A stretch of 64,000 nt of DNA from Candidatus Nomurabacteria bacterium (GCA_943354905.1 CALRDL010000001.1:29520-93519), one strand, 5' to 3'; counted from the first letter of the stretch, positions 3,535-61,977 are shown. Numbers and translations: made by a program. The notes: generated from the sequence alone by a model not told the origin.

Positions 3535-4054
3535 CAACAGGAGGTCTCTCTTTTTTTGACTTCGGATTTGTATGCCAATCCGGCTCCTCTACAGGTCTCG
3601 GGGCTTTTACTTTATTAATTTCAAAAATTTCTTCTGCAATTTTTATATTTCTTTTTAAAACTTCAATGAATAATTTATCTACATTATTTACTTTTCTTAT
3701 CACAAACAAGACCTCGATTTCTTGTTTATGATATGCTTGAATTGGTTTATTTCTCTCAATAGGTTTTGATTCGAGTCCGATTAAAAGACTTGAAATATCC
3801 TCGTCTGTTAGATTTATATCTAGTATATTATTAATATAATTTGTGATTTTATCTTTAATTTCTTCAGTGATTTCTATTTGCACATATCCTGCATCTTTTT
3901 TCTCATCGTATTTTATAGTCGCGAGACTACCTACTGCCGCAACAACACCCTCAACAAGCAAGGCTTCCTTTAAAAAATCTCTCCTACTTGGTTGTTTTGG
4001 TGGACTAATTTTTTTATTACCCAAACCAATTACATTTAAATTATTGTCCTCCAT
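3527..4054 (-). CDS. Hypothetical protein; its 3' end overlaps the IS66 right inverted repeat
   Basis: Complete 175-aa ORF. The stop codon and last codons lie inside the IS terminal repeat. No family recognised. Confidence 0.4.
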   Translation of the reverse strand: MEDNNLNVIGLGNKKISPPKQPSRRDFLKEALLVEGVVAAVGSLATIKYDEKKDAGYVQIEITEEIKDKITNYINNILDINLTDEDISSLLIGLESKPIERNKPIQAYHKQEIEVLFVIRKVNNVDKLFIEVLKRNIKIAEEIFEINKVKAPRPVEEPDWHTNPKSKKERPPVAV

Positions 4055-4069
4055 ATATAAACATATACT

Positions 4070-4762
4070 CTAAAAAACTTTTAATAAAAATCTCTCGAAA
4101 GCACTCTCAGCATCAAGTCCAACACTGCGAGCTTCGGGTAAAAGATAACTCAGTTTTTTAGAGATATCTATAAGTTCTTTTTTAGAAAACTTATGAAAAT
4201 CTCCCGCCCGAACGGCCGAACTCATTCGGTCGGGCGGGTTTTTCAAGATCATATCTTTTATTTTCCAGAACAGTATCCCTATCAGCTCTTCCATCACCAC
4301 CCCTTTATCCACTGCTTGCCTAAAATAAATCCAAAGATTTATCTTGTCTTTTTGTCCAAAAGCATCGGCCAGTAAAAAATTGTTGAATTTCTCTTTTTTT
4401 TCTTTTGATAATGCGAACATATTTATCTCCGCCCGAGCTTTTTTAAAAGCATCCAGTATTGGCTTATTTAATTTCCCTTCCAAAAAGATGAAAGAATTTT
4501 TTGATTCACCCATGAATGTCAATTTTTCTAAAATAAATTCCTCACTATCTTCACTGATTTCATTGGCTAAAACGTTTTCTAAAATTATATTTGAAAGAGG
4601 AGAAAACATACTGTAACCAGAATACAGGCTTTCTATCTCCATTTTATTAAAATTATTTCTATTTACAAAAAAAGTTTGAGCCTCACTTTCTATAGACTTT
4701 AGAAATTTCTCATAACTCGTCCGTTTAGCTTTGGCATCATCTCCAGTAAAAAGATATATCAT
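4070..4762 (-). CDS. holA: DNA polymerase III delta subunit-like (short form)
   Basis: The MIYLFTGDD... N-terminus is typical of HolA. Length is 230 aa. Contains an in-frame Family A palindrome. Confidence 0.5.
   Translation of the reverse strand: MIYLFTGDDAKAKRTSYEKFLKSIESEAQTFFVNRNNFNKMEIESLYSGYSMFSPLSNIILENVLANEISEDSEEFILEKLTFMGESKNSFIFLEGKLNKPILDAFKKARAEINMFALSKEKKEKFNNFLLADAFGQKDKINLWIYFRQAVDKGVVMEELIGILFWKIKDMILKNPPDRMSSAVRAGDFHKFSKKELIDISKKLSYLLPEARSVGLDAESAFERFLLKVF
4203..4238. repeat. Family A palindromic element (CCCGCCCGAAC...TCGGGCGGG), in frame in holA
   Basis: Sequence cccgcccgaacggccgaactcattcggtcgggcggg, translated as ...MSSAVRAGDF... Confidence 0.65.
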
Positions 4763-5305: not shown

Positions 5306-7858
5306 TTACGAAGTATTGGAATTCGATGAATTTAATTTCAAGACAATAACTTCATTAATAAGTTCTAAATCATCCATCATAGTTTGAGTAGCTCCCACTC
5401 TAGCACAAAGCATATAATCTTGCATAGATTTTACTACCCAAACTTGTGATTGAAGTCCTTTTTTGTTCAACTCATATACAATTTTACGAAATGATTCCTC
5501 GCCCCATTTATTCATTGCAAATTGCATCAAAGAAACAACTTTGGCATTGATCTGTGGTGCATAGTGGTTAATATATTCTAAAAATATATCTGGCATTAAA
5601 TCTGTATCCATCAATCCATAAGCCATTAAATAATTTACAGTTTCGACAGTGTTGAGCTCAAAAGGTAATGTGGGTTCTAGTTTATGAATACGTTCAACAA
5701 CATCACCTGATCCGGAGGTCATTAAAATATTATTAATAGGTGTCTGGCTATTGCGTATTATATCAACAAGTTCCTTTTCCCCCACCCCAATAGAATATTT
5801 TACATCAATCTTAATTGTAGTTTGATAATTATCTTTCTTGTGATATTTCCCTATTAAATCTAAAGCTTCTTCTAAAGACAAAAGGCTCTCGCCTGTGAGA
5901 TCTCCATCGACTGTACGAATGTATACATTTTTTAAATCTTCCCAAGTTTTCTCAATCGTTAGCCCGGTTGCATTTGTTGTGAGGTCTAATTTTATATCAT
6001 GAGAAACCACCCACTTACCATCCTTGGTGGGAACAACATCTATTTCAATAGTGTTTATATTTCTTTCGAGAGCTGCGAGAAAACTTGCTCGAGAATTTTC
6101 AGGGAAGCCACCAACAGTTTCGTGTATAGATATTCCACCGTGAGCGACGATGTCTGGTAGTTTTCCTTCACGTGATTCATTCTCTACTTCATTTTTATCA
6201 ACAAAAGGATCCTCTTGGTTTTTAAAAGGTTTATTAGTAAAACTCACCCATACTTTTCGCATTTGTTTAATAATTTCTTCCTTACAAATTTGCTTATTTT
6301 GTTCGTCAGCGTGATAATATTCTTCCATTAATATCTTGACGGAAATTGCAATATTGTGTTGAAATTTATCATATGCATACAAACGTTTTGCAAAGGGTTT
6401 ATCTTGGACATCTGGTTTTATAATAAAATTACATTGATTTGGTAAAGGTCGCCAATAAATATCTTCAAATTTTATTTGATCAAAATATGAACCAGTGTGT
6501 AAATCAAAACATCTAAGAGATCCGTTGGATAGCTTGACCATATTTATAGTCTGAAGTGGTAAATCAGGTTTATTATATTGCACTGGCATAATTTTAACTT
6601 CAAGCCCCAATAATTTTCCAAAAATAAAAGGAATAATGTAGTTGAGGTAACTTCTATCACCATCAAAATTAGCTCTAATATGAGTTAGAACTTCCATAAA
6701 TTCGCCTAGAATCTGGCATTCGATTTTTGTCATTTCCTCAACAGATAATTCAAAACGACTCTCAAGCATTTTTTTCCATCCCAACAGCTTAGATGACTCC
6801 TTGTCCCATTTTATAATTGCTTTCAACATATCAGAAGACTTTTTTCTCACTAATTCAGGAAAACCTAAAAATTCCTTGCTGAGTTTATTGAGTTGTATTG
6901 GTTTTGTTCTATTTCGGTCAATAATTCCTGTAGATGACATCCATTCAGGAGCTAGATCGTGTCTAATAGCTGGCAAAACTTTTGTCTCTCCACCTTTTTC
7001 AACTACCTTACTCATTTCTTCTTTCACACTAACACTGTCGACATCCTTTTCCGTTTTTACATACACAATAGCTGGTAATTGTTCTAATATAGATAGAATA
7101 TTATCGGTATTAAATGCAGAAACATGGTCAACTATATTCAGACTAGCTAACACTTGCAACCTTTCAACTAATGGGTGTATTGGACGATCTCCATTCTTGT
7201 TTTTATTTTGTAAAGATACTGAATAATCACTATTTACTAAAATTATAATAATGTCGCCTACTTTTTTAGCTTGCTCAATAAAATTTATATGTCCTTCGTG
7301 AACCACATCAAAAACACCCCCTATTACAACAACTTTTTTTCCACTAGTTTGATATTGTTGAACAAGATCTGGTAAATCTATTTCTGGTATAAATTTATCA
7401 TTAGAAATACTGTCTTGTTCATATCTATTTAAATATGGAGATTTTTTCTCTCTTCTTATTCTTTCCACAGTCACTTTATCTATTCCTTCATTTACAAAAT
7501 AGGTATTGCTATAAAGAGAAAAGGGGTTGTTTTTTAGCGTAAAATCTTCTTCTCCACTACTGTTAGTTCTAATAATACCAGAAATACATTCTATGTGAGA
7601 AATAAAATGATCCACTCTTTGGCTTTCTCTAAAATCATTCAGAGAGTTAGGATCGTGAACATTAATATAGACAGGTAGATTTTTATCAGCTAGTTTGTGT
7701 AAAAAAGTTATGAGACGCATATCTAGTTGATCCATCTTTTCTATTTCTAGATATGTTATTTCTCCTCTTTCTATTTTCAACAACGCTTCAGCTGGAGACA
7801 AATATCTTTCAGGGTTATGCCTCATAAATTCATAAATATTGTTTTGTGGATTTTCCAT
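5306..7858 (-). CDS. Multidomain protein: N-terminal cytidylyltransferase-like domain (HxGH), uncharacterised middle region, C-terminal glycerophosphodiester phosphodiesterase (GDPD) domain
   Basis: KKVVVIGGVFDVVHEGHINFIEQAKKVGD matches the GxFDxxHxGH nucleotidyltransferase motif. VAHGGISIHETVGGFPENSRASFLAALERNINTIEIDVVPTKDGKWVVSHD matches the GDPD signature. Confidence 0.6.
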   Translation of the reverse strand: MENPQNNIYEFMRHNPERYLSPAEALLKIERGEITYLEIEKMDQLDMRLITFLHKLADKNLPVYINVHDPNSLNDFRESQRVDHFISHIECISGIIRTNSSGEEDFTLKNNPFSLYSNTYFVNEGIDKVTVERIRREKKSPYLNRYEQDSISNDKFIPEIDLPDLVQQYQTSGKKVVVIGGVFDVVHEGHINFIEQAKKVGDIIIILVNSDYSVSLQNKNKNGDRPIHPLVERLQVLASLNIVDHVSAFNTDNILSILEQLPAIVYVKTEKDVDSVSVKEEMSKVVEKGGETKVLPAIRHDLAPEWMSSTGIIDRNRTKPIQLNKLSKEFLGFPELVRKKSSDMLKAIIKWDKESSKLLGWKKMLESRFELSVEEMTKIECQILGEFMEVLTHIRANFDGDRSYLNYIIPFIFGKLLGLEVKIMPVQYNKPDLPLQTINMVKLSNGSLRCFDLHTGSYFDQIKFEDIYWRPLPNQCNFIIKPDVQDKPFAKRLYAYDKFQHNIAISVKILMEEYYHADEQNKQICKEEIIKQMRKVWVSFTNKPFKNQEDPFVDKNEVENESREGKLPDIVAHGGISIHETVGGFPENSRASFLAALERNINTIEIDVVPTKDGKWVVSHDIKLDLTTNATGLTIEKTWEDLKNVYIRTVDGDLTGESLLSLEEALDLIGKYHKKDNYQTTIKIDVKYSIGVGEKELVDIIRNSQTPINNILMTSGSGDVVERIHKLEPTLPFELNTVETVNYLMAYGLMDTDLMPDIFLEYINHYAPQINAKVVSLMQFAMNKWGEESFRKIVYELNKKGLQSQVWVVKSMQDYMLCARVGATQTMMDDLELINEVIVLKLNSSNSNTS

Positions 7859-8015
7859 AGATCTTTATATTATTTATTGTATCCAATACAACCCCAACTA
7901 GAAGCAAAATAAAATAAACCGAGTAAGAATGGGCTAGCAGGTGGTGTACAGTATGCTTTTTTGTACTTTCGTCCTTCATGGCTTGATTATAACATAATAA
8001 ATTATTTGATTTCAT
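7830..8015 (-). pseudogene. Duplicated 5' fragment of the ICMT-like gene (pseudo-N-terminus)
   Basis: ...KKHTVHHLLAHSYSVYFILLLVGVVLD is about 80% identical to residues 8-40 of ORF 4778-5245. The DNA at 7880-8000 matches 5130-5250. Confidence 0.5.
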
Positions 8016-8016
8016 A

Positions 8017-8047
8017 CACGGGTGAGGGCTTTAGACTCTCACTGAGG
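8017..8047. repeat. REP-like palindrome overlapping the RAYT stop codon
   Basis: Sequence cacgggtgagggctttagactctcactgagg. Its reverse complement matches the CTCAGTGAGAG-TCTAAAGC-CTCTCACTGAG consensus. Confidence 0.6.
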
Positions 8048-8713
8048 CAATTCATCTGGCTCTTGCAATGAAGTACAGCCTCGTTCTTCTCGAATAATAG
8101 ATATTATTTCTTTGCAATGTTCTTTTAAATTATTTTTTCCTTGAAAAACTTCCAACATGCTCTGCCCTTCTTTTTTAGAAACAAAGTTAAAAAGTCCACT
8201 ATCATATTCCTTATCACTAGAAAATATAAAATGAAGCTTACTTTTCGGCATATCATGTACTAAATAATTTTGATTGACATACCCAAATGTTTTTCTAAAA
8301 TAATTATCGTTTTTAATTAATTTAGATTTAAATGTTCCTTGAAATAAAGAACCTGAACGCTTATTTTTTTCATTAAAGTAAGAAGTATACCCGCCTTGGA
8401 ATTTTTGCATAAATTTTGATATCCCACCATCTACTAATTGTTTTAAAAGAAAATGAAAATGATTTGGATTAATACAAAAAGCAACAATAGCAACAAGTGG
8501 TTCTTTCTTGATTCGCGGGTGAGGTTCTAAAGCCCTCTCTGAGATAGACTTGTAGTACATTTCTAAACTTCCTATCGCCTCAACTTGATTAAACTGTTTT
8601 ATACTTTCCTTAAAGCGTTCCAGATCTTTCAGATCACCGAAAATATCACGCTTATCTACACCTCTATTATATATATGATAATACTCCCCTGTTACGAGTG
8701 GCTCTTTTCTCAT
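8039..8713 (-). CDS. REP-associated tyrosine transposase (RAYT, IS200/IS605 Y1-transposase-like)
   Basis: YHIYNRGVDKRDIF is near the N-terminus. The HuH motif NPNHFHFLL is present, followed by the region GGYTSYFNEKNKRSGSLFQGTFKSKLIKNDNYF, which resembles the catalytic-Tyr segment of the RayT family. Confidence 0.7.
   Translation of the reverse strand: MRKEPLVTGEYYHIYNRGVDKRDIFGDLKDLERFKESIKQFNQVEAIGSLEMYYKSISERALEPHPRIKKEPLVAIVAFCINPNHFHFLLKQLVDGGISKFMQKFQGGYTSYFNEKNKRSGSLFQGTFKSKLIKNDNYFRKTFGYVNQNYLVHDMPKSKLHFIFSSDKEYDSGLFNFVSKKEGQSMLEVFQGKNNLKEHCKEIISIIREERGCTSLQEPDELPQ
8515..8552. repeat. REP-like copy inside the RAYT coding sequence
   Basis: Sequence cgcgggtgaggttctaaagccctctctgagata. 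Confidence 0.5.
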
Positions 8714-8727
8714 ATATTTAGTATATC

Positions 8728-8758
8728 ACAATGAGAGTCTAAAGCTCTCACTGAGATA
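8728..8758. repeat. REP-like palindrome upstream of the RAYT start
   Basis: Sequence acaatgagagtctaaagctctcactgagata. Confidence 0.6.
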
Positions 8759-8760
8759 CA

Positions 8761-9297
8761 TTAGATCTTTGTTATCTCATAAAAATACCTCCAAGGCTTA
8801 TTTGGTAGAGGATGTTTTGACACTTTTAATGATTCATTTTTTTGCAATGTTTGTAAAAACGGTTCGTATTCTTCATTTATGTTACCTACGCTTTCAATAA
8901 TTAATATTTTCCCATCTATTTTAATAACTCTCAATGCTTCATTCATAAAATCCTGAGTTCTTCCCTCTACCCTATCGGCATTCAAAATATTTGTAAAAGC
9001 TAATTCATCAACTGATCCATCAGGAAAGGGAAGACTTCCTGCATCTGCCCTTATAACTATAGCCTGATAATCCCCCTTCGAACTTTCAATTCCTTTCTTA
9101 ACAGTATAAGTTTTATGCCGCTCCAACTCAACAGCATAGTATTTGTCTCCTGTTTGTGGAAGTTTTCCAGCAGGTGAATTTTCATGAATACTAGGATTCT
9201 CCCCAACACCAATTTCTACAACCACTCTTTTTGGTTGTGTCTCGAGTTTATCTACTGGACCCTGCACTGATATTTTAGTTGGGCCTGATTCGTCCAT
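8761..9297 (-). CDS. Putative class I SAM-dependent methyltransferase
   Basis: VVVEIGVGENP resembles methyltransferase motif I. Length is 178 aa. No stronger signature. Confidence 0.4.
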   Translation of the reverse strand: MDESGPTKISVQGPVDKLETQPKRVVVEIGVGENPSIHENSPAGKLPQTGDKYYAVELERHKTYTVKKGIESSKGDYQAIVIRADAGSLPFPDGSVDELAFTNILNADRVEGRTQDFMNEALRVIKIDGKILIIESVGNINEEYEPFLQTLQKNESLKVSKHPLPNKPWRYFYEITKI

Positions 9298-9333
9298 ACT
9301 TCAATGCTATCATTTTATCCTTCTTGTGTAAAT

Positions 9334-9364
9334 CTAGTGAGGGTCTAAAGCGCTCACTGAAATA
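9334..9364. repeat. REP-like palindrome
   Basis: Sequence ctagtgagggtctaaagcgctcactgaaata. Confidence 0.6.
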
Positions 9365-9367
9365 TCT

Positions 9368-11977
9368 TTATTTCACTTCCCCAAAATTGTCTCCGGAGCC
9401 TGAGTGGACTATGAGCGGGATGTCGGTCTTGTATTCTAAATACGATCTCGAAAGAACCGTTTGCATAGCATTTTTAATTATCTTTTCTGCTTGGTCTAAA
9501 ACTCCTTCTTCGACTTCGTACACGAGTTCATCATGAATCTGCAAAACTAGATGCACTCTATCAAGTAGGCCAGCACTTTTCAAATCTTCATGAGAATATC
9601 TGATGGCTAGTTTAATAATGTCGGCGGTGGCTGTGCCCTGGATGGGTGCATTTGTGGCTGTACGCTCGGCCATGTTTTTCAAAAATGGAATCCTAGAATT
9701 TATATTTGGAAAATATCTCCGCCGTCCAAACAAAGTTTCCGTAAAACCATTTTTAGTGACATCAACTTTTACTTTTTCTAAATAATCTCGCACCCCAGAG
9801 AATTGATTGAAATAATTATCATAAAACTTTTGGGCTTCTTCTCTAGTTCCACCCAAATTTTTCCGCAGAGAGGAAACTCCCATACCATAAATAATTCCGA
9901 AGTTTATTACCTTAGCCTTGCGACGCATTTCGTGGTCAACTTTGTCGATAGGCACTCCAAAAACAAAAGACGCCACTCCAGAATGAATATCTTTCCCCTC
10001 TTTGAAAATCTCAGTCATTTTTTTATCTCCAGAAAGCATCGCTGCGACACGCAACTCTATCTGACTATAATCAAAAGTACAAAGCTTGTAACCCTTTTGG
10101 GCTATAAAACCTGCTCGAATCCTCTTGCCGAGCTCGGATTTTATTGGAAGATTTTGTAAGTTTGGATCGATAGAAGAAAACCTACCGGTGGTAGTAGCAT
10201 TTTGTAAAAATTTAGAATGAAGTCTATTATCTACTCCGACCATTTTTGGAATCACATCGATATATGTCGAAAGCAATTTTTGAAGTTCTCGATAAGAAAG
10301 TATTTCTGTAATAATCGGATTTTCTTCTTCAAGTTCTTCAAGAACTGAAACTTTAGTAGATAAATTTCCACTGGCTCCTTTTTTCTTGGACTTCATCCCC
10401 ATCTTCTCAAAGAGAACAACGCCTAATTGCTTCGGGGAATTAATGTTAAATTCCGTACCAGCCATTTCATATATTTTTTTGGTTAAAATATCTAGTTCAA
10501 TATGATATTCTTTTGAGAGTTTTTCAAAATATTTTTGATCGAGCATTATGCCGTGATCTTCCATCTCTTTGACTATAGGAATTATTGGATGCTCGATCTC
10601 TTCATAAACTTTTTCAAGTTTTTTTTCACTCAATTTCTTAAAAACATATTCGCGAGCTTTTTCGAAATCACTTGTATTGGCCTGCCCGACTGAATAGTCG
10701 TTCGGGCGGGAGAAATTTAAAATATCCTCCAAGCTTGGATTGGAGATATCAGAGTTCACTAGCCAGAGAGCTATGCTGGTTTCTTGAAGCTTAAGAGGAT
10801 CCGCAGGAAGACGCTCGGGAATAGCAGAATACGAATTTAGCAGAATTTTCTCGGGTCCTCGGGTCGCCCCTAGGATTCTCCGTCGGGGCTCAACCAGACC
10901 AGCTCGAAAATTCTCTAAATTCGTATTCTGCTGACTTGAAAAAAAACTTTTCAATCTTGAAAACAAAGACCTAAATTCAAAGAAATTAAATATTTGTTCA
11001 ATTTTTTTAAAATCTGCATTTTCCCAAAAAGTTTTTTCTGGAATTTTAAAATTGATCGGTGCATCTCTGCGTATTGTCGCTAAAGTTTTCGAAAAAAGTG
11101 CTTCTTCTTCGTTGTTTTTTAAAAGCTCAATCATCCGTGGACTAATACCCGCTTTTAAAAAATCTTCATCCCCGCCCGAACGACCGTCCGGTCGGGCGGG
11201 TTTTTTTAATTTTTTATAAATATCTTCGATGGTTCCAAATTTACTGATTAAAATTTCTGCAGTTTTTTCGCCTATGCCTTTGATGCCGATGATATTGTCT
11301 GACGGATCTCCGCGAAGTCCCTTGTAGTCTGGCAAAAAAACCGGTTTAAAATTAAAACGTTCTACGACTTTTTCTTCATCATACAAAATAGTGTCGTTAA
11401 TACCTTTTTTAAGAGTGTAGACTTGAACCTTTTTATCATCGATGAGTTGCATCGTATCCATATCTCCGGAAGCAATGATGATATTTATACCCCCTCCGCC
11501 CTTCGTCAAGCTCAGGGTACCTCCCCTATTTTTGGAGGGGACATAGGGGGAGGTCAAGTGGGGGCGCAATTGCGCCACTATAGTACCAAGCACATCATCC
11601 GCCTCGAAACCCGGTGCATCATAAATCGGAATATTAAAAGCTTCGAAGATTTGGCGAGAATTTTTTAGTTGCGTTATGAGAGCTTCATCGGTCTTGGCTC
11701 TCCCTTTTTTATATCCATCATAAGCCTCATGCCGAAAAGTTTTTTGTGGTAGATCATAACAAGCCACGATATAGTCTGGCTTCAAATCTACAATGATCTT
11801 CATCAACATTGTAGACAACCCATACAAAGCCCCAGTCGGCTCACCTTTAGAAGATAGAAAGTCGGGAAGGGCATGATAGGCTCGATGAATTATCGCGTGC
11901 GAATCCAAAAGGACTAAAGTTTTGGGCTGTTTACTATTTTGCTCATTTTCTTTAATTTCTTTAGTTTCTTTGGACAT
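9368..11977 (-). CDS. polA: DNA polymerase I (5'-3' exonuclease plus polymerase domains)
   Basis: 869 aa. The N-terminus LVLLDSHAIIHRAYHAL and the C-terminus ...RVHLVLQIHDELVYEV with YGMG and IIKLAI motifs fit PolA. It hosts three in-frame palindromic inserts. Confidence 0.9.
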   Translation of the reverse strand: MSKETKEIKENEQNSKQPKTLVLLDSHAIIHRAYHALPDFLSSKGEPTGALYGLSTMLMKIIVDLKPDYIVACYDLPQKTFRHEAYDGYKKGRAKTDEALITQLKNSRQIFEAFNIPIYDAPGFEADDVLGTIVAQLRPHLTSPYVPSKNRGGTLSLTKGGGGINIIIASGDMDTMQLIDDKKVQVYTLKKGINDTILYDEEKVVERFNFKPVFLPDYKGLRGDPSDNIIGIKGIGEKTAEILISKFGTIEDIYKKLKKPARPDGRSGGDEDFLKAGISPRMIELLKNNEEEALFSKTLATIRRDAPINFKIPEKTFWENADFKKIEQIFNFFEFRSLFSRLKSFFSSQQNTNLENFRAGLVEPRRRILGATRGPEKILLNSYSAIPERLPADPLKLQETSIALWLVNSDISNPSLEDILNFSRPNDYSVGQANTSDFEKAREYVFKKLSEKKLEKVYEEIEHPIIPIVKEMEDHGIMLDQKYFEKLSKEYHIELDILTKKIYEMAGTEFNINSPKQLGVVLFEKMGMKSKKKGASGNLSTKVSVLEELEEENPIITEILSYRELQKLLSTYIDVIPKMVGVDNRLHSKFLQNATTTGRFSSIDPNLQNLPIKSELGKRIRAGFIAQKGYKLCTFDYSQIELRVAAMLSGDKKMTEIFKEGKDIHSGVASFVFGVPIDKVDHEMRRKAKVINFGIIYGMGVSSLRKNLGGTREEAQKFYDNYFNQFSGVRDYLEKVKVDVTKNGFTETLFGRRRYFPNINSRIPFLKNMAERTATNAPIQGTATADIIKLAIRYSHEDLKSAGLLDRVHLVLQIHDELVYEVEEGVLDQAEKIIKNAMQTVLSRSYLEYKTDIPLIVHSGSGDNFGEVK
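10681..10710. repeat. Family A palindromic element, in frame in polA
   Basis: Sequence cctgcccgactgaatagtcgttcgggcggg. Confidence 0.6.
11171..11200. repeat. Family A palindromic element, in frame in polA
   Basis: Sequence cccgcccgaacgaccgtccggtcgggcggg, translated as KKPARPDGRSGGDE. Confidence 0.65.
11491..11577. repeat. Family B compound palindromic element, in frame in polA
   Basis: Sequence ccccctccgcccttcgtcaagctcagggtacctcccctatttttggaggggacatagggggaggtcaagtgggggcgcaattgcgcc, translated as ...PYVPSKNRGGTLSLTKGGGG... Confidence 0.65.
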
Positions 11978-15075: not shown

Positions 15076-15108
15076 GAGACCTGCCTGCGCAGGCAGGTCT
15101 GGAGGTGT
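15076..15108 (+). terminator. GC-rich hairpin after ruvB
   Basis: gacctgcctgcgcaggcaggtc, a perfect 9-bp stem. Confidence 0.5.
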
Positions 15109-15136: not shown

Positions 15137-15652
15137 ATGCGAATTTTGGGAATCGATCCGGGTTTTGAACGACTTGGGATTGCTATATTAGAAAAGCCTA
15201 GCATAGGAGTTTCCTATGACTCCATAGGAAACTCCTATGCGAAACATAAAGAGAAAGTTATTTTTTCTACTTGCTTCAAAACTTCAGCTAAGTTGGAATT
15301 TTCAGAACGTTTGAAATTGATCGGTGAAGAAGTGAAAAAAGTAATTCAAGAATACAAACCAGATGTACTCTCCATCGAAACTTTATTTTTAAATACAAAT
15401 CAAAAGACAGTGATGCGGGTCGCCGAAGCACGGGGTGTATGTATTTATGAAGCCAAACTTGCAAATTTGCAAATCTTTGAGGCCACCCCACTCCAGATCA
15501 AGGTAGCCATCACTGGCTATGGACGATCTGACAAAAATCAAATAAATAAAATGGTACATATGCTCGTCGATATCGACAAAAAAACAAAATCAGACGACGA
15601 ACTAGATGCTATCGCTATCGCATTAACAGCTTTTGCACACCTAAAGTATTGA
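15137..15652 (+). CDS. ruvC: Crossover junction endodeoxyribonuclease RuvC, with an in-frame palindromic insert
   Basis: MRILGIDPGFERLGIAIL... and DAIAIALT motifs. Confidence 0.85.
   Translation: MRILGIDPGFERLGIAILEKPSIGVSYDSIGNSYAKHKEKVIFSTCFKTSAKLEFSERLKLIGEEVKKVIQEYKPDVLSIETLFLNTNQKTVMRVAEARGVCIYEAKLANLQIFEATPLQIKVAITGYGRSDKNQINKMVHMLVDIDKKTKSDDELDAIAIALTAFAHLKY
15201..15240. repeat. Family C perfect palindrome (CATAGGAGTTTCCTATG-N-CATAGGAAACTCCTATG), in frame in ruvC
   Basis: Sequence gcataggagtttcctatgactccataggaaactcctatgc, translated as SIGVSYDSIGNSYA. Confidence 0.75.
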
Positions 15653-46258: not shown

Positions 46259-47122
46259 TCACCTTAAAGTTTTTACAAATTCTATCCAATCTTTGAGAGT
46301 TAATTCTTCCGCTCTTTTGTTCCCTAATAACACATAGGAGTTTCCTATGCCATAGGAAACTCCTATGTGTTTGAGGTTGCCAGACAGTTTTTTGCGCTTG
46401 TGAGCGAAGCCAGCTTTGACTATTTCCCAAAATTTTTGCTCAAATTCCAGACTGTTCAAAGCTTTATTTTGAACTTCGCTCCGTCCTCCCCCTTGCGAAG
46501 GGGGAGGTGTCCTGAGTTCATCGAAGGGCGGAGGGGGTAAAGTAATGAAATTTTTTCTTGAAATATTATTTATACTGATGACTGCCGAGTCTACCTTTGG
46601 TGCAGGAGAGAAATATCTGGCTGGAACTTTCATAATAAGTTTCGGATCACCATAAGCTTTTACAGAAATAGAAAGAATACTTTCCTTGCCATCGCGAGCC
46701 ACTATTCTTTTTGCCACTTCATTTTGGACCATCAGCACCATGCTAGTAGGCTGATGTTTGTCTGTTAAAAACTTTTTCAAAATCGCTCCAGTTATATTAT
46801 ACGGAATGTTGGCGATGATTTTATATTGCGTTAGGTCTTGCCTAACGCAATCAAAGTCGAGAATATCTTCATGTACTAGTACGAGAGAACGAGACTCTAT
46901 TTCTTTTGCAAATTTATCTTTCAAAAATTCAAAAAGATCATTATCTTTTTCTACGGCTATAACTTTTGCTCCTGTTTGTAAAAGTTTCTCAGTGAGTGCG
47001 CCCTTACCAGGACCTATTTCCAAGATTACATCATCTTTTTTTATCTCTCCTGCTTTGACTATATTATTCAAGGCTGGAACCGATTTTAAGAAATTTTGTC
47101 CCAATGATTTTTTTATTTTCAT
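46259..47122 (-). CDS. rsmA: 16S rRNA (adenine1518/1519-N6)-dimethyltransferase, with two in-frame palindromic inserts near the C-terminus
   Basis: LGQNFLKS and LEIGPGKGALT motifs. Confidence 0.85.
   Translation of the reverse strand: MKIKKSLGQNFLKSVPALNNIVKAGEIKKDDVILEIGPGKGALTEKLLQTGAKVIAVEKDNDLFEFLKDKFAKEIESRSLVLVHEDILDFDCVRQDLTQYKIIANIPYNITGAILKKFLTDKHQPTSMVLMVQNEVAKRIVARDGKESILSISVKAYGDPKLIMKVPARYFSPAPKVDSAVISINNISRKNFITLPPPPFDELRTPPPSQGGGRSEVQNKALNSLEFEQKFWEIVKAGFAHKRKKLSGNLKHIGVSYGIGNSYVLLGNKRAEELTLKDWIEFVKTLR
46332..46368. repeat. Family C palindrome, in frame in rsmA
   Basis: Sequence acataggagtttcctatgccataggaaactcctatgt, translated as HIGVSYGIGNSYV. Confidence 0.7.
46482..46539. 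repeat. Family B palindromic element, in frame in rsmA
   Basis: Sequence cgtcctcccccttgcgaagggggaggtgtcctgagttcatcgaagggcggagggggta. Confidence 0.7.
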
Positions 47123-53861: not shown

Positions 53862-54005
53862 ATTTTTTTATTTAAGCTAATAAATTATTGTTTATATTAT
53901 ACACCAATTAAATATGTTTTAGATATTTGTAATACCATTATACCATAAAGATGTGCATTTTGTCAAGTATTTATTTTTAGATTTTTTAAATCAAAACGCA
54001 AAAAG

Positions 54006-54050
54006 GCCGTACGCTGGAGTTGGGAATACCAACGGCGTACGGCCTTTCGA
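54006..54050. terminator. GC-rich hairpin at the left edge of the high-GC island
   Basis: aggccgtacgctggagttgggaataccaacggcgtacggcct. Confidence 0.45.
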
Positions 54051-54106
54051 TTGATTTGGTTGATGTGTGTGCCGGCCCACGATTGTAGGTCGGCAATAAA
54101 GAACAA

Positions 54107-55141
54107 TTAAAAGGCTTCGATTTTCACCTGAGCCCCGGCTTTTTTTAGCCGGTTTTCAAGGTACTTGAGCCCCTTTTCCATCAGCGCTGGTCGTGAGACC
54201 GGGAGCGGATGGAGGTGGACAGTGAGTCCTTTCAAGTTGAGTGCGCCGATGTCGGCGATCTGGTCTAACTTTGACCAGTTCGCCTCCTCAAGAAGCTCTG
54301 GGTTTTTGTAAACCGAGGCTTCAGGAAGATTTTCGAGCCCATCTGTAAAAATGTGGAGCTTAGGACGTGAGTCCTTGTTCTCCATCATTTCTTTTAGGAT
54401 GGGCATGAGGCCACGCAGGACGGAGCTCTTGGGCTTTGCTTTCCCTTCCACTAGCCAGTCTGTGCTGGCTTTTACTTCGGCTTCCATACCAAGATTTGGA
54501 CGTTGCCGTCCCCCTTGGTAAGGGTCCTCGGAAATGTGATATAGGTTAAGCGCGATTTTGTTTTTGCCGTCAGCTCCGAGCTGTACGGCTCGGGTCTCGT
54601 CAACAATCTGACGAACCCGTTTGGCTAAGTCGTCACTGACACCCTCGGTGGTGTCGAGCGCGACTCCAAACGCCCGCTTGATCGCGACCGGGCCGGTGAA
54701 GGCCTCGATCGCTTTTGCCAATTCGGGCTGGGAGCCGGTGAGCTCTTTCCTCCGATTCGGCCGGGTCGTTTGCTCGAACTTTAGCCAGCCTTTCAGCTGG
54801 AAAATGTTCGAGGATAGGATCTTGTCACCGTCCTTTGTGACGAAGGTCAGTTTCAGTCCATACCCACCCGGCTCTTCCGGCGTGGGGCGTTCGGCGCCGT
54901 AGCGTTTGAGGCTTTTGGCGCTGAACTTCTTTGATTCTTGCAAGAAGATGTCCGTTAAGCGGACACCTTCCGTGGAAACGAGGGTGCTGGCGTCGATCGC
55001 CAACCCCCCGTCCGCTTCGACTTCCCGTTCGAAAACGAGGAAGTCTTCTTTGGGGGTGTACTTCTCCCCCCAAAGGAACATCGTGAGTCCGATCGCCGCA
55101 GCCAGTATGGCTACGGACGACAGGACCAGTTTTTTGTTCAT
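54107..55141 (-). CDS. GC-rich hypothetical exported protein, possibly vWA-like
   Basis: N-terminal anchor LVLSSVAILAAAIGLTMFLW. PKLHIFTDGLEN resembles a vWA segment. Assignment weak. Confidence 0.45.
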   Translation of the reverse strand: MNKKLVLSSVAILAAAIGLTMFLWGEKYTPKEDFLVFEREVEADGGLAIDASTLVSTEGVRLTDIFLQESKKFSAKSLKRYGAERPTPEEPGGYGLKLTFVTKDGDKILSSNIFQLKGWLKFEQTTRPNRRKELTGSQPELAKAIEAFTGPVAIKRAFGVALDTTEGVSDDLAKRVRQIVDETRAVQLGADGKNKIALNLYHISEDPYQGGRQRPNLGMEAEVKASTDWLVEGKAKPKSSVLRGLMPILKEMMENKDSRPKLHIFTDGLENLPEASVYKNPELLEEANWSKLDQIADIGALNLKGLTVHLHPLPVSRPALMEKGLKYLENRLKKAGAQVKIEAF

Positions 55142-55162
55142 TGCTTCTGTTCCTTTCCGCCC

Positions 55163-56773
55163 CTAGAACTTAGGGGCCCTCCACGCTTTTACCGGCGCGG
55201 GGGCGGGTGGTGGTGGAGGTGCGGGTTTTGCAACCTCAAGGGCCGCTTTCTCCGCCTCCGCTTTTTTTCCTGCAATCAGTTCTTCCGTGATTTTTGCAAG
55301 GGTTTTTTCCGTTTCCGCTATCGTCATGACGCGGACTGAAATGTTTTCGTTTGCCGGCGTCGTCGTGACGGCTTCCATGTCGGCGATAAGGCCGGCAGGG
55401 AGATCGATCGAGAACACCGGCTTGTTGGCGTTGAAATTGGCGACGAGTTCGTCGTCGCTTTCCGTTGAGTTGCTGGTTCTTGCCACCATTTTTTCAATGG
55501 CTTCGCCGAATTCATCGACGAACCACTTGGGTGACTGGCCGAACTCATGTGCGAGCCGGCGAATCGTGGCGATGCCGTGGTTGTGGGTCTCTTTGGCTTC
55601 TTTTGCCAGCGCGAGCTGGTGCTGGAATTCTGTGTGGTAGACATTGTAAGCGCCCTGTGCGTCCGGAGACGTGACAGTCGCTTCCAATTCCACTAACTGC
55701 TTTGCCAACGCTTCCGCCTCTACCTTCTTGGCCATGGCGGACTCGGCTTGCGGGTGGGTGGTGGTTGAAAACACCGCTTCCCAAGCGTACAATACCGCGA
55801 ACACTAACACTACACCAAACGATCCGGCGATGTCGCCAGTCTGAGTCATCATAACCCAGCGGATGCCGAGGGTTCCGAGGATAGTCATGGCCATTAGCCA
55901 GAACCACATCCTGTGCTTAAACTCCGCGTCGCCAGACAGAGTGAAAACCGAGACTGACTTACCCGTCAAGGGGTCTACCCCGTTCGGAAAAGTTTCTCTC
56001 AGTTGCTGAGTAGCGTTGCAAAGGTCGAGTTCCACCTTCATGGCGGAACCAGCGAAGTAGGTGGTTATGGATCCCGCCATGCTCACTAGGAGCGAGAAGG
56101 CGAGGGCCATCGATTGGTTTCCTTGGTCTTGAAGTATTGGTGCGTTGAACACCACTTCAAAAAACAAGGATATCGCGAATGCCGCGGTCACGGGGAGCCA
56201 AGATGCTGGTCCAGTTTCCGGAGCATTGATTGCGAGGTTTGGGTTGCCGTTGATGCCGATTGCCAACCGGCGTGCCTCAAGGAAGGCATCTTTTGCCTTG
56301 ACCTGGAGGGTGTCGATGGCGGCGAGGCCCGCCTGGGCGAAGCCTTTTAGCTTGCTGGCGAAGTCCGTGGTGAGTTGGTTGGGGTTCGGTGTTGGCACAT
56401 CCTGTGCCTGACGAACCTTTTGAATCGCGTTGCCGAGCGTCTGCTCGGCAAAGGCTTTGTATCCAGCGAAGAGATCGCTGAACATCTGGGCCACTTCTTC
56501 GAACAGAACCGATATTTGACCCGGGGCATACGTGCCCCCGAGCCCCTCTACTGCCTGGACGAGTGCTGGCATGTGCGGGGTGACGACGACCTGAGGGTCG
56601 AGGGTTACCACACTTCTAACGACGGGCTGGATGTTGTTGTTTTCGGTCACTGCGGCCGGAGCCGAGGTGCCGATTTTTAAGGACGTAGTGCCCCGTCCGG
56701 GCACCAGCTGGAGCAGTCGCCTGCTCCAGCTTTTGAGTTTTTCTCTCATTTTTTTTACCTTTTCTTTTGTCAA
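55163..56773 (-). CDS. GC-rich hypothetical membrane protein with four predicted transmembrane helices and a poly-Pro C-terminus
   Basis: 536-aa ORF with transmembrane segments at ~200-330. C-terminal PAPPPPPAPAP. Confidence 0.45.
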   Translation of the reverse strand: MTKEKVKKMREKLKSWSRRLLQLVPGRGTTSLKIGTSAPAAVTENNNIQPVVRSVVTLDPQVVVTPHMPALVQAVEGLGGTYAPGQISVLFEEVAQMFSDLFAGYKAFAEQTLGNAIQKVRQAQDVPTPNPNQLTTDFASKLKGFAQAGLAAIDTLQVKAKDAFLEARRLAIGINGNPNLAINAPETGPASWLPVTAAFAISLFFEVVFNAPILQDQGNQSMALAFSLLVSMAGSITTYFAGSAMKVELDLCNATQQLRETFPNGVDPLTGKSVSVFTLSGDAEFKHRMWFWLMAMTILGTLGIRWVMMTQTGDIAGSFGVVLVFAVLYAWEAVFSTTTHPQAESAMAKKVEAEALAKQLVELEATVTSPDAQGAYNVYHTEFQHQLALAKEAKETHNHGIATIRRLAHEFGQSPKWFVDEFGEAIEKMVARTSNSTESDDELVANFNANKPVFSIDLPAGLIADMEAVTTTPANENISVRVMTIAETEKTLAKITEELIAGKKAEAEKAALEVAKPAPPPPPAPAPVKAWRAPKF

Positions 56774-57252
56774 GTTCTGCCAAAGACTGCTGGGTTCTTC
56801 TTCCAGTCACCTTTGAAGTAGTACAAGATATTAGTACTATGAATTAACCCATATTTATAGTATAGCACTTATTTATCTAAATGTCAAGCTGAATATTGCT
56901 ATGTTTTATAAAATGTAGTGTAATAAAGACCATTGAGTTATCCCCACATTCCCTCTTTTCGATTGACTTTCGACCCTCTTTTGTTATCATATAGGAGTAC
57001 CCATACACCTAAATAAATAGGTGTTCGGGTATAGTTCTGAATAGAGGAGATGGTACAAGATGGCAGATAAGCGGACCCGACAGTAACCATCGTAAGAATC
57101 TTTTTTTACAGCACAATTTCGGTCGTACTGTATTCTAGCCTTACATTAAAAGGTCAGAAAGGAAATCTTACGGTAAATTTGTTTGTTTTATAAAAAACCT
57201 ATTTAACATATACAGTGCTACGCAGACTAAATCTTTTGCCCTAAAGGGTATT

Positions 57253-60252: not shown

Positions 60253-61977
60253 AACACAATCAAAAAAAATTTAAAAATAGATCTACTGAATAAAATCCCA
60301 AAAGAAGTTTCACATGTAACAAGTACGCTCAGAAAAGCAGGTTTTGAGGTTTTTTTGGTTGGAGGTTGTGTAAGGGATTTATTTCTTGATAGAGAACCAA
60401 AGGATTGGGACGTCACTACTAATGCCAAACCAGAGCAGATCATAGCCCTCTTTGAAAAGACTGTATATGAGAATACTTTCGGTACAGTCGGCGTAGTTGT
60501 TTCCCGTGAAACGGCTACACCTTCAAATCTCCACCTTGTGGAGGGGGAGATGCCGAAGGCAGAGGGGGTAATAGTGGAAGTCACCCCATACAGAATTGAA
60601 GCAAAATATAGCGATTTTAGACATCCTGATGAAGTAAAGTTTAGTGATAATCTAACAGATGACCTTAAAAGACGTGACTTCACCATTAACGCAATGGCTA
60701 TAGATTCTAAAGGACCCGCCCAAAGTCTAAAGGACATTGAGTCTGGCTGGCATCTAACTGACCTTTATGAAGGTATAAAGGACATAGAAAATAAAACATT
60801 ACGGACAGTGGGGAGTGCGGATGAGAGATTTAATGAAGATGCATTGCGAATGCTTCGGGCTGTGCGTTTTGCTTGCCAATTAAATTTTTCTATTTCTTCT
60901 GAAACTACAGAAAGTATTTTAAAAAATTCTAATTTGATAAAAGAAATTTCTTCAGAAAGAATTCGAGATGAATTTATAAAAATAATTTTATCAGATAATC
61001 CGGCAAGTGGTTTAGTTATGTTGCAAAAATTTGGATTATTAAAAAATATTATTCCTGAGCTTGAAGAGGGGATAGGTTGCGAACAATTAGGAGAACATAT
61101 CTATGATGTTTGGGACCATTTGCTTCATGCTCTCCAGCATGCAGCGGACAAGAAATGGCCTTTAGAAATAAGGCTTTCTGCTCTTTTTCATGATATTGGG
61201 AAGCCAAAGACTCGACGAATCGCTTCGCAGGAAAATGCTTTCCGTCATTCGCACTCTGTCCTGGAAGTGCAAGATAGTTCTGTTCGTAGCGAAGATTCCT
61301 CCAAGCATATTCCTGCTACACTCTCTCCCCGTGAGTCCGAGAATATTTTGTCCCCCAAGAGTAAAAAGAAATATACATTTTATGGTCATGAAGTTGTCGG
61401 TGCAAGAATAACGAAAAAAATAATGGAGAGATTAAAATTTTCTAAAAAAGAAATTGATCTGGTGGAAAAACTTGTTCGCAACCACATGTTTTTTTCTGAT
61501 ACTGAGCTTATCACTCTCTCTGCCGTGCGAAGAGTCGTTACTAAAGTCGGAGTAGATAATATTTGGTTTCTAATGAATGTCCGTGAATGTGATCGAGTGG
61601 GAATGAAAAAGAAAGAAGCTCCTTATCGCTTGCGCAAATATTTTGCTATGATCGAAGAAGCCCTCCATGACCCTATTTCCGTAGGAGCCTTGAAAATAAA
61701 CGGTGAATTTATGATAAAGGACATGTCCATTAAACCCGGACCACGCATGGGTTGGATGTTGAACGCACTTCTTGAAGAAGTCCTTGAAGACCCGAAAAAA
61801 AATACGATAGAATATCTAAAGGACAAAATTTTGGAACTCGAAAAACTTTCTGACGCAGAATTGAAAGCCCTTGGGGATAAAGGGAAAGAAAAAAAAGAAG
61901 AACTCGAAGAAGAAGAAGTCGAAAAACTTCACGCTAAGCATGGAGTGAGATCGGGTAAAGGTGAAGCAAAGAAGTAA
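60253..61977 (+). CDS. cca: tRNA nucleotidyltransferase (CCA-adding enzyme, head domain plus HD domain) with two in-frame inserts and an acidic C-terminal tail. The start is uncertain (non-ATG).
   Basis: LVGGCVRDLFLDREPKDWDVTT, RDFTINAMA, HDIGKP. The ORF-table start at 60184 lies inside tRNA-Gly, so a downstream TTG near 60253 is assumed. Confidence 0.75.
   Translation, partial: NTIKKNLKIDLLNKIPKEVSHVTSTLRKAGFEVFLVGGCVRDLFLDREPKDWDVTTNAKPEQIIALFEKTVYENTFGTVGVVVSRETATPSNLHLVEGEMPKAEGVIVEVTPYRIEAKYSDFRHPDEVKFSDNLTDDLKRRDFTINAMAIDSKGPAQSLKDIESGWHLTDLYEGIKDIENKTLRTVGSADERFNEDALRMLRAVRFACQLNFSISSETTESILKNSNLIKEISSERIRDEFIKIILSDNPASGLVMLQKFGLLKNIIPELEEGIGCEQLGEHIYDVWDHLLHALQHAADKKWPLEIRLSALFHDIGKPKTRRIASQENAFRHSHSVLEVQDSSVRSEDSSKHIPATLSPRESENILSPKSKKKYTFYGHEVVGARITKKIMERLKFSKKEIDLVEKLVRNHMFFSDTELITLSAVRRVVTKVGVDNIWFLMNVRECDRVGMKKKEAPYRLRKYFAMIEEALHDPISVGALKINGEFMIKDMSIKPGPRMGWMLNALLEEVLEDPKKNTIEYLKDKILELEKLSDAELKALGDKGKEKKEELEEEEVEKLHAKHGVRSGKGEAKK
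60531..60570. repeat. Family B element (half-deleted form), in frame in cca
   Basis: Sequence ccaccttgtggagggggagatgccgaaggcagagggggta. Confidence 0.65.

Follow-up and report, generated by a model that had tools for sequence, protein, structure and literature searches.

The window, a 64-kb stretch of DNA from a Candidatus Nomurabacteria bacterium, encodes on its minus strand two proteins into which short palindromic elements, here called Family A, are read in frame. The first ORF (positions 4070-4762) encodes 230 amino acids, and its orthologs, which are conserved in Patescibacteria, typically have 215; the second (9368-11977) encodes a DNA polymerase I (polA) of 869 amino acids, compared with 793-842 in its orthologs. 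The initial annotation had placed the elements once in holA and twice in polA. The polA assignment is solid (PF00476, E = 1e-135; NF004397, 802 bits), while the holA label is weak: ORF 4070-4762 has no Pfam match, and its match to TIGR01128 (E = 1e-5) is confined to the N-terminal half and scores 25 bits against a cutoff of 80. Judging from this partial similarity, the ORF possibly encodes the DNA polymerase III delta subunit (holA), and we refer to it as holA-like.

The same three copies that had been annotated were found in the window, and no others. Copy 1 (CCCGCCCGAACGGCCGAACTCATTCGGTCGGGCGGG; 4203-4238, 36 nt) and copy 3 (CCCGCCCGAACGACCGTCCGGTCGGGCGGG; 11171-11200, 30 nt) lie in the plus orientation of the family model, antisense to the holA-like gene and to polA, respectively, and copy 2 (CCTGCCCGACTGAATAGTCGTTCGGGCGGG; 10681-10710, 30 nt) lies in the minus orientation, sense to polA. 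The pattern CCCGCCCGAACG...GTCGGGCGGG is read on the plus strand for copies 1 and 3 and on the minus strand for copy 2. Because copy 2 is inverted, the motif originally proposed for all copies, which describes copies 1 and 3 well, fits it only as the reverse complement, with one arm mismatch (CCTGCCCGA on the plus strand). All three lengths are multiples of three, and the reading frames are uninterrupted across copy 1 (..KNPPDRMSSAVRAGDF.., peptide PPDRMSSAVRAG) and across both polA copies (..KKPARPDGRSGGDE.. and ..FSRPNDYSVGQANT..), which are read as SRPNDYSVGQA (copy 2) and PARPDGRSGG (copy 3). Copy 2 has TAT in place of the canonical TGA of its frame.

A covariance model built solely from Family A copies of other genomes returned exactly these three matches in the 64-kb window, with scores of 55.9 bits (E = 1e-9) for copy 1, 44.1 bits (E = 4e-7) for copy 3 and 33.4 bits (E = 7e-5) for copy 2, and it detected no degenerate copies within the window. 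The 9-mer of the arm, allowing at most one mismatch, occurs 14 times in the window against 2.4 expected, a count reached by none of 100 shuffles. Copy 1 has a GC stem of 9 bp, a bulge (ACGG), an inner stem of 5 bp and a CUCA loop, with a predicted folding energy of -27 kcal/mol (z = -4.5), and the window copies are predicted to form stable hairpins on either strand (-13 to -27 kcal/mol). Copy 3 is identical in sequence to a copy in a Paceibacterota MAG (L089) and is followed on the plus strand by T7, which gives it a terminator-like character in a terminator-pattern match. The window itself is AT-rich, with about 29-41% GC except for one island, and its five tRNAs are all intact.

Comparison with orthologs bears out the earlier proposal of a distinct palindromic family inserted in frame. 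In an alignment of 26 polA orthologs (76-82% identity), named as Paceibacterota, Nomurabacteria, Minisyncoccia or Parcubacteria, which places the window in Patescibacteria, the Family A segments correspond to gaps in 24 to 26 sequences, with the copy 3 peptide PARPDGRSG lacking in 24 and the 10-residue block RPNDYSVGQA of copy 2 lacking in 25. The exceptions carry other elements: at the site of copy 3, L128 has another short palindrome (TCCGCCAACTGGCGGA), and at the site of copy 2 a different, decayed palindrome occupies the same position (P0024; L127), which marks these positions as tolerant spots. The holA-like insert (12-13 residues) is a gap in 14 of 16 orthologs. The two closest holA-like orthologs (65-69% identity) have a Family A copy at the site of copy 1, inverted relative to it and with a different central part. 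The ends of the copies are identical in all three lineages despite this level of protein identity, which could reflect re-insertion, copy-to-copy conversion or selection on the DNA or RNA.

Reconstruction of the empty site of copy 1 gives AAAAA/AGATTTT (K K D F; here and below the slash marks the insertion point). In a syntenic relative (L125), the holA-like copy is present and both polA sites are empty, with the junction AAA AAA/GAT; these empty sites define exact boundaries without target duplication. Since the polA sites of L125 are empty while its holA-like copy is present, the polA insertions are younger than the split between L125 and the window lineage. The nearest relatives available for filled/empty comparison share 69-77% protein identity, and at this distance no presence/absence polymorphism between near-identical strains was found. 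An AlphaFold2 model of the window polA is poor (mean pLDDT of 59), and in it the inserts form coil or low-confidence stretches between helices, residues 258-269 being coil and residues 425-434 having a pLDDT below 50.

The polA gene had been annotated as carrying three inserts in total; we count four variable GC-rich inserts, including a CCTCCCC-type hairpin (11519-11554) that is absent from many orthologs. This hairpin is part of a GC-rich segment at 11519-11576 (residues ~139-162; ACCTCCCCTATTTTTGGAGGGGACATAGGGGGAGGT, read as ..TSPYVPSKNRGGTLSLTKGGGG..) that lacks a counterpart in about half of the orthologs and in Taq polymerase, other orthologs having a shorter YPHLASPYVGGGAKGGGG version, and hairpins of a related type, CCTCCCCC..GGGGGAGG, occur at 627-649 and 46485-46507. 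The region at 10820-10920 (residues ~350-395; ..LENFRAGLVEPRRRILGATRGPEKILLNSYSAIPERLPADP..), previously designated Family B, falls within the most length-variable part of the polA alignment, with unrelated inserts in the orthologs and an AlphaFold2 pLDDT below 50.

Consensus, fold, and spread of Family A

Family A has the consensus CCCGCCCGAACGACTGAnnTCGTTCAGTCGGGCGGG and a length of 29-45 nt, with modes at 36 nt and at 29-30 nt, and the 29-30-nt short forms predominate in Bacteroidota. The element is an imperfect palindrome with a 9-bp stem (CCCGCCCGA/TCGGGCGGG), a conserved 4-nt ACGA bulge, an inner stem of 4-5 bp and a variable loop. We scanned one genome per species with an exact 22-base pattern (CCCGCCCGAACG-N6-24-GTCGGGCGGG) and recovered more than 119 loci in other genomes; the locus sample is thus defined by exact ends, and the conservation of the ends within it is by construction. 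Among the loci listed, about 56 are from Patescibacteria, about 50 from Bacteroidota (three isolates included) and a few from Ignavibacteria and Planctomycetota, and three matches in genomes of 65-70% GC are probably due to chance. Isolates with the element are Agriterribacter humi YJ03, Zeaxanthinibacter enoshimensis DSM 18435 and Chitinophagaceae MMS25-I14. The Patescibacteria classes represented are Nomura-, Uhr-, Yanofsky-, Kaiser-, Harrison-, Taylor-, Ryan-, Vogel-, Falkow- and Moranbacteria, Saccharibacteria and Peribacteria. It had been reasoned that palindromes absent from elsewhere in the genome, together with peptide segments conserved in other phyla, would speak against inserted elements; we observe the opposite on both counts, in that the family recurs in many other genomes and the peptides are not conserved in orthologs.

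The fold is supported by covariation in the inner stem (UA:31/CG:9 and AU:26/GC:8), with 17 double-change cells, a number that none of 500 shuffles reached. The compensatory changes (CTGA/TCAG, CCGA/TCGG and CCGG/CCGG) argue for a fold in which a 9-bp stem and the 4-nt ACGA bulge are followed by an inner stem of 4 bp and a loop, and an alternative fold of 7 + 7 bp had weaker support. No Rfam family or ribozyme matches the hairpin. Phages and plasmids were rejected as vectors, since the consensus had no BLAST match among INPHARED phages or PLSDB plasmids and only 5 IMG/VR contigs contain the pattern. We found no description of Family A, or of the GIY-YIG/tRNA/hairpin cassettes discussed below, in Patescibacteria in the searchable literature. 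Solo copies account for about 90% of the family. Other arrangements include back-to-back copies (L063, 1612-1691), copies inside tandem 91-nt units that consist of a tRNA-Val 5' half and the hairpin (L081, 2531-2657), and copies embedded in tandem repeats of 220 nt in a cultured relative of Flavobacterium (L045, 375-623).

Copies within coding sequence are filtered by length and by reading frame. Among the listed loci, 24 of the 27 copies in long ORFs have 3n lengths (30, 33, 36 or 39 nt), as opposed to 54 of the 95 copies outside long ORFs (Fisher p = 0.0014), and the three non-3n copies in long ORFs come either from spurious ORFs of high GC content or from a tRNA locus. The canonical sequence is open in four of its six frames, and the copies that occupy the two TGA-reading frames, window copies 1 and 2 included, are variants that lack the TGA. 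Family A hosts elsewhere include SecA, another PolA, CarB, an Mfd-like helicase, Pif1 helicases, AlaRS, PheRS, PurA, TGT, Dus and a beta-CASP (RNase J-like) nuclease. The 3n excess and the stop-free frames imply that coding copies are translated and selection-filtered, not spliced, with translation of the inserts deduced from ORF continuity together with the length filter.

If the segments were removed ahead of translation or in its course, as mini-introns or translational-bypass ('byp'-like) elements, their length would no longer be constrained. The coding copies are nevertheless 3n-long and stop-free, and we regard this explanation as very improbable. It has a precedent in some yeast mitochondrial genes, where GC-rich hairpin inserts are bypassed by the ribosome, and it could draw on the presence of the element in tRNA-like sequences, where translation is irrelevant. 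These tRNA-like sequences are fragments, however, and in-silico excision of the element gave an ARAGORN-detectable tRNA at no site, which led us to reject intact tRNAs as carriers of Family A. Self-splicing introns, inteins and ribozymes are also at odds with a length of 30-36 nt, which is too short for them, with the lack of an Rfam match and with the 3n filter. We consider it firmly supported that each window element is a solo insertion of a repeat which forms a hairpin, occurs across phyla and is read through as 10-12 extra residues.

Insertion sites and the GIY-YIG cassette

Target duplication is absent at the polA, holA-like and tRNA D-loop sites of Family A, and the element ends are exact at the D-loop sites (GGTA/GAGC). 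A natural filled/empty pair is provided by L062 (about 6220-6400), where, as in an Ignavibacteriales MAG (L080), Family A lies within the loop of a different repeat hairpin (GTGTCAGGAG-element-TTTACTCCTGACA). About 100 nt upstream of the filled hairpin in L062 lies an empty one, GTGTCAGGAG-TTTC-CTCCTGACAC, and the comparison again gives an exact insertion without target duplication. Two candidate rules for site choice were rejected. Insertion at stem-loop junctions, exemplified by tRNA D-arms, by L062 and L080 and by A/T mini-hairpins at window copies 1 and 3, was seen in 12% of 116 copies against 8% of random controls for stems of at least 4 bp (p = 0.09), with a signal solely for stems of at least 7 bp (3 cases). 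A target-site consensus amounted to weak preferences (G at -4, T at -2 and nATC after the element), which are inflated by kin tRNA-linked copies.

The dominant neighbor of the hairpin is a GIY-YIG ORF (PF01541, 77-109 aa), present at 18 of the 119 listed loci, and in these hairpin-selected loci 12-13 of 19 such ORFs have a Family A hairpin within 25 nt. In a reverse test, contigs were fetched for seven GIY-YIG homologues chosen without regard to hairpins. In six of the seven, a tRNA 5' fragment precedes the gene and contains, 15-30 nt upstream of the ATG, a hairpin that belongs to Family A or is Family A-like; all seven genes abut a complete tRNA gene. The distance between hairpin and gene is 12-30 nt overall, and the hairpin has the same orientation as the gene in seven cases and the opposite one in five.

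These cassettes begin with tRNA nucleotides 1-20, followed by the hairpin at the D-loop position GGTA/GAGC or, at rarer sites, at GCTC/AGTT or after tRNA nucleotide 9. A few further tRNA nucleotides, a short leader, a GIY-YIG ORF of about 79 aa and an intact tRNA (Phe, Ile, Thr, Val or Lys) complete the order, and the last codons and stop of the ORF (the TAG of TAGCTCAG) form the 5' end of the intact tRNA. The architecture recurs in other genomes (L129-L141, L011, L103, L104 and L119). In L104, the GIY-YIG gene and tRNA-Val lie between two direct copies of the D-arm and hairpin. All three window copies are solo, and HMM and regex scans of all ORFs of at least 50 aa found no GIY-YIG, RAYT or other transposase candidate in the window, which covers 64 kb of a contig of at least 125 kb.

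The initial annotation had suggested an association with RAYT-type transposases, and Family A could in principle consist of REP-type sequences moved by a RAYT or IS200-like HUH tyrosine transposase. Short, imperfect, GC-rich palindromes without target duplication are what single-strand HUH transposition would be expected to leave, and Y1_Tnp (PF01797) proteins with weak similarity to REP-associated tyrosine transposases are encoded at 4 of the 119 listed loci, all from Patescibacteria. These genes lie 1-2 kb from Family A, however, and the roughly 0.8 Mb of flanking DNA contains no case in which a Family A copy borders one of them. The window encodes no Y1 transposase, Family A has no terminal GTAG or CGTC tag of the type that defines REP superfamilies (PMC3733652), and the sole flanking hairpins (L004) belong to another family, TGCAGGAGCT...AGCTCCTGCA. 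We therefore consider RAYT-driven movement improbable, and the association that we do find is with GIY-YIG genes. The hairpins of that other family enclose two tandem RAYT-like Y1 transposase genes in an Uhrbacteria MAG (L004, 3700-5330), possibly a genuine REP/RAYT system in a Patescibacterium, unrelated to Family A.

The adjacency to GIY-YIG genes, by analogy with other mobile systems, suggests that the nuclease may move the Family A hairpin. We infer mobilization in trans for the solo copies because the GIY-YIG gene elsewhere almost always has a Family A hairpin 12-30 nt away. We know of no mechanism by which a GIY-YIG nuclease transposes a hairpin, and the adjacency could also arise if the hairpin were a regulatory, 5'-UTR or immunity part of the cassette, or if it were a landing mark, with the nuclease homing beside hairpins. 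A further lead on small GIY-YIG genes at tRNA D-loop sites is possibly provided by a superfamily survey, which reports that prokaryotic Slx1-like GIY-YIG domains occur as fusions with a tRNA Gm18 methyltransferase of the TrmH type, whose site of action is the D-loop of tRNA (PMC1564403).

We weighed separately whether the hairpins might be selected functional signals (antisense terminators, RNA-stability elements or protein-binding sites) and not selfish insertions. T5-T7 follows copies 1 and 3 on the antisense strand, one of them flagged as terminator-like, all copies have stable predicted folds in the range given above, the ends are unchanged in the three holA-like orthologs, and the spacing between the hairpin and the GIY-YIG start codon downstream of it is fixed. 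Against a signal speak the mixed orientations (17 forward and 10 reverse in the ORFs of the listed loci, in addition to those at GIY-YIG genes), the scatter of insertion sites over unrelated genes, and family flanks that have no conserved T-run and only weak base preferences. Most polA and holA-like orthologs, moreover, work without the insert. An intrinsic terminator in particular is hard to reconcile with copies inside ORFs whose T-run is antisense, restricted to copies 1 and 3 and unconserved in the family. We consider a selected signal of this kind quite unlikely.

We favor instead, with a probability of about 0.8, the reading that the window elements are solo copies of a mobile hairpin of the REP/RPE kind, retained in frame and presumably mobilized in trans by a GIY-YIG nuclease. 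This reading builds on the observed insertion relative to orthologs, the exact boundaries, the family membership and cross-phylum spread, the covarying hairpin and the 3n/no-stop filter. The element inserts precisely, in either orientation and without target-site duplication, and under this reading it would be dispersed in trans by the small (about 79 aa) GIY-YIG nuclease of a tRNA-gene-associated cassette. Copies within genes would persist only where their length is 3n, their frame is free of stops and the site tolerates about 10-12 extra residues, rich in Pro, Arg, Gly, Asp and Ser. In the holA-like gene and, twice, in polA, the element would then be transcribed and translated within the protein.

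A more specific version is that Family A is the dispersed, non-autonomous partner of an undescribed mobile cassette, in which a minimal GIY-YIG protein recognizes the hairpin and spreads 30-36-nt copies in trans; we hold this version to be possible but rather doubtful. In the cassette, the GIY-YIG gene would be flanked on one side by a 5' tRNA fragment whose D-loop contains the hairpin and on the other by a complete, regenerated tRNA.

Relation to known mobile elements

Palindromic inserts that keep the reading frame are known in Rickettsia and in a small number of further lineages. The Rickettsia palindromic elements (RPEs), reportedly described by Ogata et al. in 2000 as being translated into extra surface segments, are about 100-150 bp long and confined to Rickettsia and its relatives, and we know of no dedicated transposase for them. 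Family A resembles them as an in-frame palindromic insert in unrelated, often essential genes of a small AT-rich genome, and like them it is absent from orthologs (the polA and holA-like alignments and the empty sites of L125). It differs in its length (29-45 nt in the family and 30-36 nt in the window, far from 100-150 bp), in being tagless and nearly unchanged across phyla, and in its link to GIY-YIG genes.

Among further comparators are the GC clusters of yeast mitochondria and the double-hairpin elements (DHEs) of Allomyces mitochondria. These are also short, GC-rich hairpins in AT-rich genomes that lie inside protein and RNA genes, and DHEs occur beside a mobile GIY-YIG-type endonuclease ORF, as Family A does beside GIY-YIG. 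They differ in being organellar, in having unrelated sequences and, for some, in having short target duplications, and to our knowledge neither is part of a tRNA D-loop cassette.

REP superfamilies are defined by an unpaired terminal GTAG or CGTC tag, with a CCA tail for CGTC REPs, and RPE-4 and RPE-6 also carry a CGTC tag (PMC3733652). A minority of REPs are intragenic, and CGTC REPs also occur without a dedicated transposase (PMC3733652). Family A shares with REPs and REPINs the form of an imperfect GC-rich hairpin of 20-40 nt that is multicopy and maintained by compensatory changes (PMC3733652), being a short, imperfect palindrome with three copies in 64 kb, more than 119 loci elsewhere and covariation. 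It differs from REPs in its internal 4-nt bulge and in having neither a GTAG or CGTC tetranucleotide nor a CCA tail, since the element starts and ends in the paired CCCGCCCGA/TCGGGCGGG arms and its flanks are tagless. No RAYT gene is flanked by Family A repeats in the listed loci or in the window, and all three window copies are intragenic. The proposed dependence of Family A on a GIY-YIG nuclease would parallel the supposed dependence of REPs on RAYT transposases.

Phage T4 SegB (PMC2330249) offers a parallel for the cassette, in that its GIY-YIG nuclease gene is interspersed with tRNA genes or borders on them and acts like a selfish cassette. SegB differs in having a DNA-binding domain and no dispersed hairpin (PMC2330249), whereas the Family A-linked proteins of about 79 aa are essentially the catalytic domain alone and the hairpin also exists as many solo copies. 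The adjacency itself is seen in loci related to those of the window, at 12-13 of the 19 ORFs and, from the protein side, at 6 of 7 independent places, the window copies being solo. MITEs such as the Coxiella QMITEs (PMC5896051) are likewise non-autonomous repeats able to add residues to proteins, whereas they have IS-derived terminal inverted repeats and target-site duplications, both of which Family A lacks. Taken by analogy, Family A is RPE-like in its effect on proteins, REP-like in form and similar to fungal GC clusters and DHEs in its setting, and it departs from the RPE, REP and MITE kinds in their defining features, namely tag, RAYT, length and target duplication.

Were mobilization by the nuclease confirmed, Family A would represent a REP/RAYT-like system in which a GIY-YIG nuclease takes the place of the HUH transposase, and its 30-36-nt copies would have spread through Patescibacteria, Bacteroidota and other phyla, essential genes included. 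One hairpin is nearly base-identical in ultra-small Patescibacteria and in cultivable Bacteroidota, and the availability of isolates together with a candidate partner in the form of the very small GIY-YIG nuclease gene located at tRNA genes, makes mobilization testable in the laboratory. Family A remodels core proteins (PolA, SecA and aminoacyl-tRNA synthetases), and its inserts make Patescibacteria proteins longer, interfere with alignments and phylogenies and cause tRNA detection to fail.

Other repeats and islands in the window and its relatives

Further repeats occur in the window. Perfect palindromes (CATAGGAGTTTCCTATG/CATAGGAAACTCCTATG) lie at two loci (15201-15240 and 46329-46371), another hairpin or repeat (AGACCTGCCTGCGCAGGCAGGTCT) at 15077-15100, and a GGGGGAGGTGCCGAAGGCGGAGGGGG-type repeat at 638-675 and 60538-60569. 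At 54000-57000, the GC content rises to 55% from a background of about 35%. This island contains two minus-strand ORFs (54107-55141, 344 aa; 55163-56773, 536 aa) that have no Pfam match, and its neighbors are a DUF5663 gene and a LysM/M23 peptidase gene. The region may be horizontally acquired or may reflect mis-assembly. The syntenic relative L125 has two segments that are absent at the counterpart positions of the window: a HicAB toxin-antitoxin pair between polA and a PEMT gene (3632-4118) and, beside the holA-like gene (6019-11947), an island that encodes a serine recombinase, a tyrosine integrase and AbiTii.
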